Virus record (IMG/VR): IMGVR_UViG_2778261568_000008
Location: 1 to 33,324 of that record
Source of the DNA: a virus
Lineage: Duplodnaviria > Heunggongvirae > Uroviricota > Caudoviricetes
Direction: 5' to 3' (one strand)
Length of the DNA: 33,324 nt
Positions 21,278 to 33,324 of this stretch are shown piece by piece (position 1 is the stretch's first letter; every line of letters begins with the position of its first letter). Below the pieces are notes generated by a model. It made no database searches. It worked only from the letters and a program-made list of their open reading frames with translations, and was not told where the DNA came from. The position numbers and the translations under genes are program-made.

Positions 21278-22643
21278 TGCTGATTATATAGACCAACTTC
21301 CAGTCAATCTTTTAGCTACGCCCAAGGAGGTGTTGAATTCATCGGGATATCTTCGCTCATTCCCGGGCATTGCCAAACGCTCTGATGTGAACGGTGTATC
21401 GCGCGGCGTCGAGTACAACATGGCGCAGAGTGCTGTTTATCGCGTGTGTGGTGGCAAACTGTACAAAGGAGAAAGCGAGGTTGGTGATATCGCCGGAAGT
21501 GGTCGTGTATCAATGGCGCATGGTCGGACATCACAGGCGGTAGGCGTTAATGGTCAACTGGTCGAGTATCGCTATGATGGTACGGTTAAAACCGTCTCAA
21601 ACTGGCCTACAGACAGTGGATTCACTCAGTATGAGTTAGGTTCAGTTCGCGACATTACGCGCTTACGTGGGCGTTATGCGTGGTCAAAAGACGGAACTGA
21701 TTCATGGTTTATCACTGACCTTGAAGACGAATCGCATCCTGACCGTTACAGTGCACAATATCGCGCAGAATCGCAGCCGGACGGCATCATCGGCATCGGA
21801 ACATGGCGAGATTTCATCGTCTGCTTTGGTTCATCGACGATTGAATACTTTTCCCTGACTGGGGCAACCACCGTTGGTGCCGCGTTGTATGTCGCACAGC
21901 CATCGCTGATGGTGCAGAAAGGTATTGCCGGGACTTACTGCAAAACACCATTCGCTGATTCGTATGCGTTCATCAGCAATCCGGCAACGGGTGCGCCGTC
22001 TGTGTACATCATCGGCTCCGGTCAGGTATCACCAATCGCCAGCGCGAGCATTGAGAAAATCCTCCGCTCCTACACTGCTGATGAACTGGCTGATGGTGTG
22101 ATGGAGTCTCTGCGATTTGATGCGCATGAGTTGCTGATTATCCATCTTCCGCGTCACGTCCTTGTGTACGATGCATCTTCAAGCGCCAATGGTCCGCAAT
22201 GGTGTGTGCTGAAAACAGGCCTGTATGACGATGTGTACCGCGCTATCGACTTCATTTACGAAGGCAATCAGATAACGTGCGGAGATAAGCTGGAGTCCGT
22301 GACCGGGAAATTGCAGTTCGATATCAGCAGCCAGTACGACAAGCAGCAGGAACACCTGCTGTTTACTCCGTTGTTCAAAGCGGATAACGCCAGAGTGTTT
22401 GACTTTGAGGTTGAATCGTCAACTGGCGTTGCGCAGTATGCTGACCGCCTTTTTCTCTCTGCAACCACTGACGGCATCAATTACGGGCGTGAGCAGATGA
22501 TTGAGCAGAATGAACCGTTCGTTTACGACAAACGCGTTTTGTGGAAGCGAGTAGGGCGCATCAGGAAAAATGTTGGCTTCAAATTGCGCGTTATCACGAA
22601 GTCACCTGTCACTCTGTCTGGCTGCCAGATAAGGATTGAGTAA
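21225..22643 (+). CDS. Tail accessory / hub protein (P22 gp10-like), intact copy
   Basis: ATG at 21225 inside the 3' end of the HNH ORF; N-terminus [11 protein letters not shown] recoded relative to the upstream fragment. Confidence 0.85.
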
Positions 22644-23344
22644 TGGCGGATTCATCACTGAATAATCCTGTCGCGGTTCAGGCTACGCGCCTTGATGCTT
22701 CAATTTTGCCACGCAATATATTCAGCCAGTCTTACCTGCTGTATGTCATAAATCAGGGTGCTGATGTTGGCGCAATTGCCGGGAAGGCAAATCAGGCTGG
22801 TCAGGGCGCTTACGATGCTCAGGTAAAAAACGATGAACAGGACGTCGAACTGGCAGATCACGACGCAAGAATCACCGCAAACACAAAAGCGATAAATCTC
22901 CTTGAGGTCAGGTTAACAACCGCCGAAGGTAAGATAGTCGTACTGCGTAGCGATGTTGATTACTTGCTGGATGAGGTTATCGATATTCAGGCGCATCTGG
23001 TCACTGTTGACCAAAGACTGGATGGCGTAGAAAGCGATGTATCTGACATTAAGAGTGATTACGTATCAAAAACCGTAACCGAATTGCAGTCTCTTGAGTC
23101 ACCGCTGGATGTAAAAACATCATATTCAGTTGATGGAATTCAGGTTGTTGGAGCAAGAAATACCGGATGGACTGCAGCCACAGGTACACCTCTTCTTGGC
23201 TCATTCAACGCTAACCAGTCATACACGGTCGGCACTACGTACACACAATCCGAAGTCGCGGCTCTCGCTACAGGTTTGCAGCAGGCGCGGCAGCGTATTC
23301 TGGCGCTTGAAACGGCACTTAGATTACATGGGCTGATTGACTGA
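22643..23344 (+). CDS. Tail needle protein (P22 gp26-like)
   Basis: [26 protein letters not shown]-terminus and coiled-coil repeats. Confidence 0.85.
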
Positions 23345-28115: not shown

Positions 28116-28233
28116 ACCAACCTCCTTAGTTTTTCGCAGGATACCATGAAAAAAGTAAACATCTTTTGCCTACTTCACATTTGAATGGTTTGTCATTAGG
28201 ATGTTTCCGGTTTTTTCAAATATGGAAATTGAT

Positions 28234-28653
28234 ATGAAGAGGATTATCGGCGTTGTTGCTGGCGCTATATTGTTATCTGGGTGCGCAACTATTGTTGGTG
28301 ACGAAACACAGCTCGTGCAAGTGAACAGCAATCCTTCCGGTGCGAGCTTTAAAGTAAAAGACGAATCAGGCGTGATTGTTGCGCAAGGCAAGACCCCGCA
28401 AGGAGTAAGTCTTGCCAAGTCAGATGGTAGTTATTTTGGCAAAAAGAGCTACCAGATCACTATGGAAAAGGATGGGTACGAACCAGTTACCCTGCCAATC
28501 AAAGCCAATGCTAATGGTTGGTATATTGGTGGAAACCTTGTGTTTGGTGGGTTAATTGGTTGGCTTGCTGTAGATCCTTTTAATGGTGGGATGTATACCT
28601 TGAAGCCAAAAGAGGCAAACGCATCTCTTATACCATCAACAAAGCAAGACTAA
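28234..28653 (+). CDS. Lipoprotein (about 139 aa, lipobox LSGC)
   Basis: Signal peptide MKRIIGVVAGAILLSGC; start may instead be the ATG at 28222 or 28201. Confidence 0.75.
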   Translation: MKRIIGVVAGAILLSGCATIVGDETQLVQVNSNPSGASFKVKDESGVIVAQGKTPQGVSLAKSDGSYFGKKSYQITMEKDGYEPVTLPIKANANGWYIGGNLVFGGLIGWLAVDPFNGGMYTLKPKEANASLIPSTKQD

Positions 28654-29176: not shown

Positions 29177-29246
29177 TGAAGCCCCAACTGCGGGAACAGT
29201 CAGGGCTTCGGTTGTCAGTAAATCCGTGGAGAAAAACCAACATGAA
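29177..29246 (-). ncRNA. Possible sar-type antisense RNA across the arc-ant junction
   Basis: In P22 a short antisense RNA covers the ant RBS; the same intercistronic arrangement and a GAAGCCC / GGGCTTC inverted repeat (29178-29209) are present. Boundaries are approximate. Confidence 0.3.
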
Positions 29247-30144
29247 TAGTATAGCAATTTTAGAAGCAGTGAACACCTCTTACGTACCATTCAACGGTCA
29301 GCAAATTATCACCGCCATGGCTGCCGGAGTTGCATACGTTGCGATGAAGCCAATCGTTGAAAACCTTGGAATGAGTTGGGGTACTCAGCAACAAAAACTT
29401 ATGAAACAACTAGATAAGTTCAACTGTATTCATATGAATATGGTTGCCGCTGATGGGAAGCTTCGTAAGCTACTCTGCCTTCCTTTGAAGAAGTTAAATG
29501 GATGGCTGTTCAGCATCAACCCTGAGAAAGTTCGAGCTGACATCCGCGATAAACTGATTCAGTACCAGGAAGAATGCTTTACTGTACTGCATGACTACTG
29601 GACAAAGGGAAAGGCAGAAAATGCACGTAAGAAAACATCTGTTGATGACAGGACTCCGCTTCGTGATGCTGTAAATATGCTAGTCAGCAAAAAGCATCTA
29701 ATGTACCCAGAAGCTTATGCAATGATTCATCAGCGTTTCAATGTGGAAAGTATTGAAGAGCTTGATGCATCTCAGATACCGCAAGCCGTAGAGTACATCC
29801 ACAGGGTAGTGCTTGAAGGTGAGTTCATCGGCAAACAAGAGAAGAAAACCAACGAGCTTTCTGCAAAAGAAGCAAACAGCCTTGTATGGCTATGGGATTA
29901 TGCCAACCGCTCACAGGCATTATTCCGCGAACTGTATCCGGCGCTGAAACAAATTCAATCGAACTATTCCGGCAGATGTCATGACTGCGGTTATGAGTTC
30001 TCCCGTATTATCGATATAGCGAGAGACGTTTTAATCAATCACTCACGAGATGTTGATATCAATGAGCCAGACGGACCAACGAATCTTTCCGCATGGATGA
30101 GACTTAAGAATAAAGAATTACCTCCTTCAGTACATAACTACTGA
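29242..30144 (+). CDS. ant: Antirepressor Ant (P22 type)
   Basis: 300 aa matching my recollection of P22 Ant; GGAG RBS before the ATG at 29242. Confidence 0.9.
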
Positions 30145-30162
30145 CAGATAACCAACGCAACG

Positions 30163-30187
30163 ACCCAGCTTCGGCTGGGTTTTTTTA
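30163..30187 (+). terminator. Rho-independent terminator after ant
   Basis: ACCCAGC-TTCG-GCTGGGT hairpin followed by TTTTTTT. Confidence 0.65.
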
Positions 30188-30243
30188 TGCCCAAAATTCA
30201 CCGTAGCTACGCTGCGGCGATTCCTTGTATCTGGAGCAATGAA

Positions 30244-31680
30244 ATGTCAGATATCACCGCAAATGTTGTGGTAAGCATGCCTTCGCAACTCTTCACTATG
30301 GCTCGTTCTTTTAAAGCCGTAGCCAATGGCAAAATTTATATCGGTAAAATTGACACTGACCCAGTAAATCCTGAAAACCAGATTCAGGTTTATGTGGAGA
30401 ATGAAGACGGTTCTCACATTCCTGTTTCTCAACCAATCATCATTAACGCCGCTGGTTACCCTGTATATAACGGACAGATTGCCAAGTTCGTAACTGTGCA
30501 AGGCCATTCTATGGCTGTTTATGATGCGTATGGTACACAGCAGTTCTATTTTCCGAATGTGCTGAAGTATGACCCGGATCAGTTAAGAGTAGTTTTGACT
30601 GGACAGTCTGGTGATGGACTTAATAATTTTTATGCTGGCTCAGGATGGACTGGTTCAGATGCAGCTGGTGACAATATTTATAACAATGAAACTATCATAT
30701 ATAAAAATGCTACACGACAGAGATTCTCCATACCAGAAACACCAATTCCAGATCCCATTATTTGGCTGGAAAAAATTAGTTCTGCAACTAGGGATGACGG
30801 CATCAAACGATGGGATCAGGGGGTAATTTATAACTCTTTGCGCAAGGTGTCAGGAAGTGCATATACATGCACAACTACAAGTGTTGCTAAGCATGAGGGA
30901 GGGAATGGGCATTCAATTGGTCACCACATGCGTGGAGAATCAAGAAATCCGCAAGCCGAAACATGGGGGGGGTGGTCATATGGTGCAGTATTAGGAGATG
31001 CAGTGCAGAATGGAGCGATTAGCACTATTGCACATGAATTTAATCTGAATAATCGAGGTCCCGATAAAGGATGGATGGAGAATGCACAGCAAGGATCTGT
31101 AAGAGGGTTGGTATGTGTAACTCAGGATAAAAGCAATCCAGTAACACAGATGATTACCATCGGAAGAGGGAGTGAAGCTCCAAATGGTTATATCTGGACA
31201 GGAATGTTGTTTAGAGGTAATTCTATTTCCACTCCAACAGAGGAACTAACCGAGGTAGGTAATGGCGAATACATCAGACTTGAGGGATCTCTATCATCTA
31301 GAGCTGCAAACGGCATTAGATTTAGAACAAATTATTTTAGGAGTGGAATTTCATTTTCTGAAGCTGGATTTTCAAACAACTGCGCAATTTTGATGGGCGA
31401 CAATCAACGAATTACGGTAGGAACGGGCCCGGCAAATACAACACATTTGAGTTTCAACAGGGCTGAGAACTGGGCTAACTTCAACAACTTAAGAATACGA
31501 CTTAATGGCAATCAAGTTATTTCAGAGAGGAGGACGGGATGGGGATCGCCAACCGGCACCGTATCCCGAGCAGCATTTAACTCTGGAACAATAACTCACG
31601 AAGATTTAGCAAAGGTAGTTGCAGCATTAATTCAGGACTTACATGCTTCGACCGGGCATGGATTAATTGGTTTAACTTAA
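30244..31680 (+). CDS. Tailspike protein: P22 gp9-type N-terminal head-binding domain plus a different C-terminal receptor-binding domain
   Basis: N-terminal 110 aa ([11 protein letters not shown] ... VLKYDPDQ) resemble the P22 tailspike head-binding domain; the remaining 370 aa do not resemble the P22 beta-helix. Confidence 0.85.
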
Positions 31681-31692
31681 CAGGACAATAAA

Positions 31693-31854
31693 ATGGATAA
31701 GCAAACTATTCAGAATATCATGCAGTTTATGCTTCGCGTAAATCTTAGCGGTCATGAAGTTCCTGCTTTTAATGCTTCAATGAATGCATTGCAGGCAGAA
31801 TTAGATAGCCCTATCGAATCTCTTCACGAGGTAAAGAATGGCACTGACGAATGA
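31693..31854 (+). CDS. Small hypothetical protein (53 aa)
   Basis: ATG ORF after the tailspike; overlaps the next ORF by 17 nt. Not in the ORF track. Confidence 0.35.
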   Translation: MDKQTIQNIMQFMLRVNLSGHEVPAFNASMNALQAELDSPIESLHEVKNGTDE

Positions 31855-32080
31855 TAATGAAGGATCTGTTTATATTCGCGTTGAACTGCCAAGAGTGCAC
31901 GGAAAGTACCGTGCACAATACGATCTCATTCAGTATATTGACCATCCAATAACCGGCGAAAAAGCACAGATAGACCGTCAAACAATGGAATGCGATTATG
32001 ACCTCGCTGGTCCTAATATCTTCGAGCAGTGCTATAAACATGCGAAGACAGAACTTCCTTATGCGACAATTGATTGCTAG
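31838..32080 (+). CDS. Small hypothetical protein (80 aa)
   Basis: ORF from the track; AT-rich region. Confidence 0.4.
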   Translation: MALTNDNEGSVYIRVELPRVHGKYRAQYDLIQYIDHPITGEKAQIDRQTMECDYDLAGPNIFEQCYKHAKTELPYATIDC

Positions 32081-32115: not shown

Positions 32116-32147
32116 AAAAAAGGCGGGATTTCCCGCCTTATTTTATT
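32116..32147. terminator. Bidirectional terminator between the small ORFs and the convergent glycosyltransferase gene
   Basis: GGCGGGA-TT-TCCCGCC hairpin flanked by A-rich and T-rich runs on both sides. Confidence 0.6.
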
Positions 32148-33324
32148 GGAAGTATGACTCTGTTTTCTTTCTGTTGAGTTTTGAACCAGTGCCTTTATAT
32201 CCGGCAGTAACATGAAATTCCCACTCGTTACGCTGCAATGCATCTTTGGTTAATCCGTAGAATCTCACTAAATATCCGCAGTCCAGATTGTAATCTGGGA
32301 ACTTCGCTACAACATCTGAGCGCTGAATTTTTTCCTCCAGAAAACCGGGCAGGATCTCCTGTCCTATGCGTAAGTTAAAGAACTGCTGCTCAACGCCCTC
32401 AGTGGGCACGCACCATCCTGTGAAAATGCATGACCCGTCATCTTCTCTCACCCTGTCTACGTAACCATGCCACGTTATTCTACTTTCATCGCGCTCAACC
32501 GTTAATGCTTGCTCCAGATTCAGCCCCATACCCTTCAGGTATTCATAAACTCCATCCATAATAAAGAACTTAGACGGGTTGATAGATTTCGAAGCTGCAT
32601 GCATATCGTAATATTCAGTCTGAGTCATCAGGAACTTTTTGACTAAATGATGTCTCGCCCCTTTGAATGCCTTCAGAGCCTCAATATCATTGACGTCAAC
32701 AAGACCCTCCAGTTTATTCCTGGCGCTGGCGATATAGTCATCATAGTTCTTATGGTGGAAGTGAAGATAAATGATATCCGTATCAACTTGCTGGCCTGAC
32801 TCAACCTCACCGCGATGGAAGCCATTACCCAGCGCAGTGATTCTTGATTTAGGGAAGAACACTTTCTCAGGCTTAGGGCTTAACGCAAATTCTTTTGGGT
32901 TAAGTGGATGGTTGCCATATGTATATTTAATTTTAAATGTGGCGTCGGTATCTATATATTTTGATAATTCATTCAACACATCATTTTTAGACAGCGACAC
33001 CTTACCCTTTGAAAATTCAACGCCGACAAACTCATCACAATCAAGTGGCATCATAAAATCATAGCCATGAGAATTCTTTAATTCTTCGTATTTGTCTACG
33101 AAGTAGATATGTCTGGTATTGAAATCATCAAAGGTGCTTCTGTCATAAACGACATTCATCCCTTTTCCCGAATATTCCTTCAGAATGTTAAGGCATCGCT
33201 CATCTGCTGACCCGTTATCGTAGACGTATAAATTTTCAAGGCCAAAAAGCTCAGCATGATGCAGTATCCATGGCTCAAGAAGCCGGTACTCATCCTTTTG
33301 CATCATCAAAACAGCAACTTTCAT
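32143..33324 (-). CDS. Family-2 (GT-A fold) glycosyltransferase, 393 aa
   Basis: VYDNGSAD and DCDEF (DxD) motifs; no obvious TM segments; the start codon is the last three bases of the window, so the promoter lies outside. Confidence 0.85.
   Translation of the reverse strand: MKVAVLMMQKDEYRLLEPWILHHAELFGLENLYVYDNGSADERCLNILKEYSGKGMNVVYDRSTFDDFNTRHIYFVDKYEELKNSHGYDFMMPLDCDEFVGVEFSKGKVSLSKNDVLNELSKYIDTDATFKIKYTYGNHPLNPKEFALSPKPEKVFFPKSRITALGNGFHRGEVESGQQVDTDIIYLHFHHKNYDDYIASARNKLEGLVDVNDIEALKAFKGARHHLVKKFLMTQTEYYDMHAASKSINPSKFFIMDGVYEYLKGMGLNLEQALTVERDESRITWHGYVDRVREDDGSCIFTGWCVPTEGVEQQFFNLRIGQEILPGFLEEKIQRSDVVAKFPDYNLDCGYLVRFYGLTKDALQRNEWEFHVTAGYKGTGSKLNRKKTESYFQ

Follow-up and report, generated by a model that had tools for sequence, protein, structure and literature searches.

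The tailspike gene of an Escherichia coli prophage of the P22-like (Lederbergvirus) type begins like the tailspike genes of its relatives and continues into a region that had been left unassigned. The question raised by this locus is what the second part of the protein is, how it folds and which structure of the host surface it recognizes. Receptor-binding domains of tailspikes set the host range of phages, and they are sought after for use as depolymerases, as typing reagents and in the engineering of phages. The analysis covered the whole stretch of 33,324 nucleotides that holds the prophage (hereafter the window). The protein is almost certainly a receptor-binding tailspike, and the explanation that best accounts for the locus as a whole, and which is considered probable, is that of a P22-like prophage tailspike built of three pieces and accompanied by a partner protein, the product of the adjacent orf53 (table 1).

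The packaging, head and ejection genes of the prophage are 94–96% identical to those of phiv205-1, CUS-3, Kapi1 and Sf101. In E. coli PK12, a nearly identical prophage carries the ejection proteins, the tailspike, a family-2 glycosyltransferase (GT2), intS and tRNA-Arg beside yfdC. The tailspike gene of the window lies after the arc/ant immI region and before the conversion/integrase region, i.e., at the location known for the tailspike genes of P22-like phages, with the antirepressor gene ant (29239–30144, Pfam P22_AR_N/C) placed just 5′ of it. A longer in-frame ORF beginning at ATG 30187 was also listed for the tailspike, but this codon sits in the T-run of the ant terminator and is therefore a spurious start. 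The ATG at 30244 is the correct one and yields an N-terminus typical of P22-type spikes. The deduced protein is identical to NCBI entry EJE0742468.1 (“phage head-binding domain-containing protein”), whose cluster at 90% identity has 166 members, mostly of 478 aa. The database names of the tailspike and its homologues are all generic, and none is accompanied by a described structure, receptor or activity.

Table 1. Features of the tailspike region of the window, with coordinates given in the numbering of the window.
Feature	Coordinates	Strand	Basis and remarks
Intrinsic terminator of ant	30162..30181	+	Terminator scan; T-run contains the spurious ATG 30187
Ribosome-binding site GGAG	30233..30236	+	Sequence read; 7 nt 5′ of the tailspike ATG 30244
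Tailspike gene	30244..31680	+	Uninterrupted ORF, 478 aa plus stop codon
P22-type head-binding (tail-attachment) domain, residues 1–113	30244..30582	+	Pfam PF09008, PDB matches
Recombination junction KYDPDQL, codons ~111–117	30575..30594	+	Point at which DNA homology to other tailspike genes of P22-like phages stops
Variable neck/linker, residues 114–165	30583..30738	+	Lower occupancy and conservation in the alignment; holds the non-conserved GQSGDG
Conserved receptor-binding core, residues 166–400	30739..31443	+	Conservation over 124 homologues
C-terminal module resembling the gp26 tip, residues 401–478	31444..31677	+	Beta-hairpins, then helix 452–466
orf53, 53 aa	31693..31854	+	12 nt after the tailspike stop, no terminator between; matches phrog_18977, function unknown
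orf80, 80 aa	31838..32080	+	Overlaps the end of orf53; kept in temperate carriers only
Bidirectional terminator	32120..32139		Scan of both strands; shared end of the tailspike-orf53-orf80 unit and of GT2, which is convergent to it
Family-2 glycosyltransferase GT2, 393 aa	32143..33324	-	Pfam Glyco_tranf_2_4, residues 11–106 only

A protein which is approximately 190 aa shorter than P22 gp9 might be the truncated or decaying remnant of a tailspike in a defective prophage, and the gene of PK12 is indeed annotated by PGAP as an “incomplete” pseudogene, with only the head-binding codons covered. The actual ORF of PK12 is, however, full and intact, with 478 aa. The pseudogene call is thus an annotation artefact, and it indicates that PGAP lacks a model for the part beyond the head-binding codons. 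Decay is also contradicted by the size and uniform length of the 90% cluster, by at least nine variants of 474–484 aa, and by the occurrence of a domain of ~364 aa with the same C-terminal end in plaque-forming lytic phages of Kagunavirus and Phapecoctavirus. A remnant is consequently very unlikely.

The N-terminal part is matched end to end by Pfam Head_binding (PF09008, positions 1–113 of 113, E 3.9e-67), and the N-termini of the solved Sf6 and P22 tailspikes align to the same residues with E values of 8e-65 and 2e-50 (PDB 7sg7, 2xc1 and 1lkt). About 25–30 PHROG tailspike families match the protein, all of them through residues 1–137 only. At the nucleotide level, homology to hundreds of P22-like prophages of E. 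coli spans arc, ant and the head-binding codons and ends at 30575–30594; many E. coli prophages are 95–98% identical in DNA up to this point, and none of that homology extends past it. The KYDPDQL junction is the classical domain-swap point of tailspikes. The first-pass annotation, made from the DNA sequence, had proposed a chimera of a P22-type head-binding N-terminus and a different C-terminal part, and this is confirmed by the extent of the PF09008 match and by the lack of any match to a solved tailspike past residue ~119. [quoted passage not shown] Kinship with the tailspikes of epsilon34 and Sf101, at which tblastn had hinted up to residues 251 and 172, respectively, was rejected. In pairwise BLASTP the true similarity to epsilon34 stops at residue ~129, so that the endorhamnosidase domain of epsilon34 is unrelated.

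No Pfam, NCBIfam or PHROG family and no solved tailspike covers residues 115–478 by sequence. Beyond residue ~119 there is one exception, a short match to a PHROG “tail needle” family (PHROG 1219), which is located at the gp26-like end. The description of the C-terminus as unassigned holds for the core, which has no model in Pfam, NCBIfam or PHROG, but not for the domain as a whole, which belongs to a large family and has a recognizable gp26-like end. In detail, when the representatives of 1.84 billion clusters (at 50% identity) were searched exhaustively with HMMER, 131 of them reached E ≤ 1e-10 and 1,249 reached E ≤ 1e-3, with many of the weaker ones matching the last ~60 residues only.

Many family members align from about residue 165 onward only, and the regions which precede the domain are diverse. 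For instance, a 94%-identical domain is found behind a Tail_spike_N (PF18668) adaptor in one relative (P0003), spikes of the Kagunavirus type (lytic siphovirus) carry the domain at 64–73% identity, and other members have it behind collagen repeats, long Ala-rich regions or no adaptor. Myoviruses of the genus Phapecoctavirus also carry it, and the gp226 “tail spike protein” of nieznany is 26% identical. One member is located in a prophage of Georgenia (Actinobacteria). On the P22 head-binding scaffold itself, at least eight diverged variants (33–75% identity, 474–532 aa) were found in P22-like prophages of E. coli. The presence of the domain on varied adaptors, together with these variants on a single scaffold, shows that it is a mobile and diversifying receptor-binding module. 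Phage nieznany was dropped as a basis for inference because it belongs to another subfamily (Stephanstirmvirinae, genus Phapecoctavirus) and its domain is so distant.

Conservation within the domain was determined from an alignment of the C-terminal part of 124 homologues, whose members share 25–45% identity. In the core, residues P171, K177, R230, W244 and E265 are conserved in 94–99% of the homologues, D191, Y196, K201, H228, Y246 and D295 in 83–90%, and E342 in 76%, while the position of N267 is occupied by Asn or Asp in 96%. Residues E265, D295, D191, K177, R230 and H228 are candidates for an active site or for the axis of the structure; the conserved polar residues of the core could instead be structural, as axis salt bridges or ion sites. 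There is about an even chance that the spike has enzymatic activity.

The composition reported for the C-terminal part, i.e., its richness in Gly, Asn, Ser and Thr, is correct (38.7%). Two hydrolase-like elements pointed out in the same region, GQSGDG and DLH, are both present in the sequence, but neither is conserved in the alignment. GQSGDG occupies variable positions (120–125) inside the linker. DLH sits in the terminal helix of the gp26-like module, and its His467 falls in an insertion possessed by 11 of the 124 members, just four of which have His there. An SGNH-type esterase or deacetylase, or a comparable hydrolase in which GQSGDG and DLH would be catalytic, had been suggested on this ground, and some E. 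coli prophages do encode a P22-type head-binding domain fused to an SGNH/lipase-GDSL domain (P0042 and P0044, with PF13472 and PF00657). In the tailspike of the window, on the contrary, HMM searches gave no match to SGNH, GDSL or any other hydrolase family at E ≤ 1, PF13472 and PF00657 included. Given this and the placement of the two elements, a hydrolase of this type is most improbable.

Profile comparison and the predicted structure both show that the last ~75 residues are homologous to the distal end of the gp26 tail needle. The family profile matches the needle structures of HK620 and P22 (5bu8, 5bu5, 2poh, 4zkp, 4lin and 3c9i) with E values of 6e-10 to 8e-9, in an alignment that spans needle residues ~139–232. 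In pairwise comparison, the prophage’s own needle (22643–23344) shows 43% identity over the stretch xGxQVxxxRxTGWxxxTGT. The hallmark of the gp26 tip, a beta-helix segment followed by a terminal helix ending in HGLI, was found by sequence, and the predicted module also resembles the gp26 tip domain in three dimensions. In P22 the tip of the needle corresponds to codons 141–233, and the stability of the trimer drops on its removal (PMC3741392). No earlier mention of a gp26-like end on a tailspike was found in the literature. A needle-tip module used as the terminus of a spike shows concretely that two different tail proteins of the same virion can share a domain.

The fold of the C-terminal part was examined in an AlphaFold monomer model based on the 124-sequence alignment (pLDDT 83.3, pTM 0.70); a full-length model based on a 22-sequence alignment was unusable (pLDDT 46.6). 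According to DSSP, the needle-like end consists of hairpins and a helix, and model residues 48–274 have no intrachain beta-bridge despite pLDDT values of 75–90. Foldseek gave no match against the PDB at E ≤ 1e-3, and the search of BFVD gave a single match at E 4e-6 with a TM-score of 0.22. The weak structural matches were all to triple-stranded beta-helix proteins, e.g., HylP, the endosialidase stalk and Solidus gp83. The absence of intrachain bridges and the scarcity of structural neighbors point to an extended chain that would pair its sheets with two other subunits, as a single-chain beta-helix would consist largely of intrachain sheets and would have many neighbors in the PDB. On the strength of the model, the fold is rather likely to be non-canonical and intertwined. 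Homology to HylP itself was rejected (hhalign probability 0.1, E 0.47, with the HylP query checked against 6wv2), and no paper on the structure of Solidus gp83 (PDB 24qj) was found in the literature.

A short and divergent depolymerase with a conventional right-handed beta-helix, formed by a single chain and misrepresented by the AlphaFold monomer, is a rival explanation. All characterized P22-like tailspikes are, to our knowledge, beta-helices or propellers. The short strand-turn rhythm and the richness in Gly and Asn are typical of beta-helices as well, the second-best match in BFVD is a “Pectate lyase superfamily protein” (E 0.03), and in some other family members a segment similar to Pectate_lyase_3/GH55 (DFGAxGDGxTDD, profile positions 23–113) is placed directly 5′ of the core, where it could serve as a cap. 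In the tailspike itself, no match to Pectate_lyase_3 or to the right-handed beta-helix family (PF12708/PF13229) and no N-terminal cap motif was detected, and its C-terminal part has neither a beta-helix Pfam match nor a beta-helix structural neighbor. The structure prediction and structural search that the first-pass annotation had called for have thus been run, and no canonical P22-like beta-helix, the outcome named there as contrary evidence, was seen in either. The unlikeness of the C-terminal part to the beta-helix of the P22 endorhamnosidase is upheld both by the lack of a sequence match and by the predicted structure, and a single-chain beta-helix is regarded as improbable.

The domain might also be a fibre-like module that binds the receptor without cleaving it. 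In Klebsiella phages, the triple-stranded beta-helix modules of receptor-binding proteins are described as reused scaffolds and non-enzymatic fibres (bioRxiv 10.64898/2026.05.12.724579). No catalytic family was matched here, the conserved residues could be structural, and the spread of the spike over hosts of different O-types (see below) fits a conserved ligand other than the O-antigen. A non-enzymatic spike is a possible but somewhat doubtful interpretation.

The terminator scan found no terminator between the tailspike gene, orf53 and orf80. A homologue of orf53 lies directly 3′ of the family gene in all six phage records that have an orf53 match (6/6). In Kagunavirus LM02P1, a lytic siphovirus, it is 54–55% identical and follows the family gene immediately; in a prophage of siphovirus type in E. 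coli E3 it is 89% identical and adjoins the family gene; in another P22-like prophage it is 60% identical, with a domain of only 46% identity. The myoviruses nieznany, tuntematon and ECML-183-2 have an orf53 product which is 84–87% identical over 38 residues, despite which the domain of nieznany and ECML-183-2 is just 26–27% identical where listed. The small ORFs that follow the metagenomic and Georgenia homologues have no detectable similarity to orf53. The strict synteny across three tail morphologies, lytic phages included, argues for a role of orf53 in assembly or as a chaperone rather than in lysogenic conversion. Whether it is the assembly partner of the domain is, on sequence and gene order, evenly balanced. 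Triple-helix folds are reported to be chaperone-dependent (PMC11326577), which would fit a partner of this kind.

On the other side of orf53, orf80 is 80–85% identical in L015 and L012, is absent after the Kagunavirus tailspike, and has no Pfam or PHROG match. From position 31132 (codon ~297) through orf53, orf80 and GT2, the window is 87.9% identical to the siphovirus-type prophage of E3, in which the cassette follows the tape-measure and TipJ genes and has yciB and ompW as neighbors. GT2 and the 3′ half of the receptor-binding domain have been inherited together. The GT2 cassette is also present in PK12 (99.3%) and in 19KM1803, and the sequences of CFSAN061770 and EP91A diverge at 31806. GT2 is a probable lysogenic-conversion gene, and when a spike domain and a glycosyltransferase travel together, this usually signals that recognition of the receptor is coupled to its modification.

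Among finished genomes the receptor-binding DNA is uncommon, with six of 5,426 containing it. Four hosts of near-identical copies (at least 99.6% DNA identity to the receptor-binding DNA) were located, and they do not belong to a single O-serogroup. PK12 has an O-antigen cluster of the O11 family, and EP91A has one of the O15 family, with an ISAs1 element upstream. CFSAN061770 and EF5-18-41 have wzx/wzy genes of the O17/O44/O73/O77/O106 family, which are present in 94 of the 5,426 genomes. The capsule regions of the last two hosts are 100% identical as well, and since this region occurs in only four genomes, the two are probably clonal. EF5-18-41 is of ST69 (PMC8350485).

For tailspikes of this kind, the rule is a single O-type for each type of spike (PMC10408124). 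The presence of near-identical copies in O11, O15 and O17-family hosts does not support a simple O-serogroup receptor, and the mismatch between spike and host O-type offers a case, open to testing, in which the O-antigen is not predicted by a P22-like spike. Either another glycan serves as the receptor, or the hosts have switched their O-antigen after lysogeny. A polysaccharide specificity different from that of P22, as had been proposed at the outset, is plausible. O11, O15, O17 and O77 are O-types of K52-capsulated lineages, and the capsule locus of CFSAN061770, placed at pheV, contains kpsC/S-like genes along with rhamnose and uronic-acid genes. The K52 capsule is nevertheless not supported as the receptor, because this locus is found at 99% or more in only four genomes, and EP91A and PK12 are not among them.

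The three-piece tailspike with its partner would work as follows. Residues 1–113 dock the spike trimer onto the tail hub, as is standard for this domain. The core (residues ~166–400) would fold only as an intertwined beta-structure of three chains, and residues ~401–478 would act as a C-terminal trimerization clamp, possibly nucleating the trimer, as suggested by the stabilizing effect of the tip in the needle. The product of orf53 would be a dedicated partner, most likely an assembly chaperone or folding helper, to judge from its strict synteny. The finished spike would bind a glycan of the host surface and would probably cleave it by means of the conserved acidic and basic residues, a step that would let the short-tailed virion reach the outer membrane. 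In lysogens, GT2 would probably modify the glycan that serves as the spike’s receptor.

A more far-reaching form of this explanation is offered tentatively, as a possibility with less than even odds. Residues ~166–478 and orf53 may form an undescribed two-gene receptor-binding cassette, which would combine an intertwined-trimer domain with a fold of its own that binds or cleaves glycans, a needle-type tip and a chaperone of 53 aa. It would be swapped among podo-, sipho- and myoviruses and reach Actinobacteria, and in the present case it would recognize, instead of the O-antigen that defines the serogroup, another glycan, which GT2 would modify in lysogens. If the intertwined fold and the dedicated small chaperone are true, the cassette would represent a new building block among the architectures of phage spikes, and the route for its expression would be together with orf53. 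In the absence of a Pfam, NCBIfam or PHROG model for the core, the domain family will be missed by host-range predictors and depolymerase finders.

In comparison with the known systems, the tailspike shares with P22 gp9, Sf6 gp14 and HK620 gp9 the same head-binding domain (83–96% identity to E. coli relatives), the same genome position and KYDPDQ recombination junction, and the expected role as the trimeric receptor-binding spike of a short-tailed phage. On the contrary, its receptor-binding part is unrelated, in sequence or predicted fold, to the right-handed parallel beta-helix endoglycosidases of these phages, and it is shorter, as had been noticed from the DNA, with 478 aa in total against the 666–667 residues of the solved P22 chains. 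It ends in a needle-like module, whereas the tailspikes of P22, Sf6 and HK620 end in a beta-prism or “caudal fin”.

The closest counterparts of the C-terminal part are the spikes of Kagunavirus, the PF18668-type spikes of siphovirus prophages and gp226 of nieznany, in which the same domain family is followed by the same orf53 gene; their N-terminal adaptors differ and are suited to a different tail. Similarly to the triple-stranded beta-helix proteins, such as HylP (PDB 2c3f and 6wv2), the endosialidase stalk and Solidus gp83 (PDB 24qj), the domain is predicted to be an extended chain without intrachain sheets. HylP, the hyaluronate lyase of streptococcal prophages, has collagen repeats upstream, and so does one homologue of the domain. 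Compared with the gp26 tip (PDB 2poh, 3c9i, 5bu5, 5bu8 and 4zkp), the terminal module has ~20 residues fewer from the TGT motif to the helix, and it is joined to a receptor-binding domain, whereas the tip of gp26 is joined to a coiled-coil shaft of 140 residues that plugs the portal channel.

The tailspike of the E. coli PK12 prophage carries the RefSeq/PGAP label of an incomplete pseudogene of 123 codons. In detail, its ORF is unbroken over 478 codons and the product differs from that of the window by one amino acid; the label is an annotation artefact, because no model exists for the C-terminal domain. The tail needles of the two prophages are of different types despite the near-identical tailspike region, and therefore the window and PK12 prophages are mosaics with a common spike cassette.

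In the window, the 3′ half of the tailspike gene forms a cassette with an 80-aa ORF and a family-2 glycosyltransferase, in which the Pfam match covers only residues 11–106 and the other ~290 residues are without a match. This cassette is found with 88% identity in a siphovirus-type prophage of E. coli E3, located at another chromosomal site.

Coordinates of the features in the window and in related loci
Feature	Location	Strand	Remarks
Tail needle, 233 aa	window 22643-23344	+	P22/HK620 type
150-aa ORF	window 28201-28653	+	between ejection genes and mnt/arc region
53-aa ORF (orf53)	window 31693-31854	+	directly 3′ of tailspike gene
80-aa ORF	window 31838-32080	+	
Family-2 glycosyltransferase, 393 aa	window 32143-33324	-	
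PK12 prophage tail needle, 317 aa	L001:350-1303		"knob" type
PK12 tailspike	L001:6016-7455		NZ_CP074031.1 1600031-1601470
orf53 counterpart	L002:5098-5256		
orf53 counterpart	L017:4001-4159		
orf53 counterpart, temperate carrier of the domain	L012:9562-9723		
orf53 counterpart, temperate carrier of the domain	L015:5451-5612		

Among the phages examined, that is, podo-, sipho- and myoviruses, every enterobacterial-phage gene with the receptor-binding domain is immediately followed at its 3′ side by the 53-aa ORF. The conservation of this ORF is 84–89%, as against 26–70% for the domain, and its product may be a dedicated chaperone. Elsewhere in the window, the 150-aa ORF includes a signal resembling that of lipoproteins (…LLSGC) and weakly matches the PEGA domain (E 0.003); judged from these sequence features, it may encode a prophage-borne surface or exclusion lipoprotein.

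The surface-glycan loci were considered in hosts of the near-identical tailspike. In E. coli EP91A, the stretch between galF and the O15 wzx contains two transposase genes of the ISAs1 family (L006:7176-9420). One of the two is a partial pseudogene with a frameshift, and these genes might affect O-antigen expression in this prophage host. The capsule locus in the pheV island of CFSAN061770 (L011:1-16692) includes kpsC/S-like genes, rfbBDAC, a sugar dehydrogenase and GT2/GT92 transferases, and its region 2 is matched with at least 99% identity in only 4 out of 5,426 complete genomes. The PK12 chromosome contains a large inversion (loci L004 and L007/L008). The gnd position predicted from argW is occupied there by the ompA-hya-tor region, and the O-antigen locus lies at 3.08 Mb, about 1.1 Mb from this predicted position.

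The receptor-binding domain also has a homologue, 43% identical, in a prophage of the actinobacterium Georgenia sp. AZ-5 (L014:6001-10182). Together with a 49-aa ORF, this homologue is positioned directly upstream of the tape-measure gene, which is an unusual place for a receptor-binding protein.
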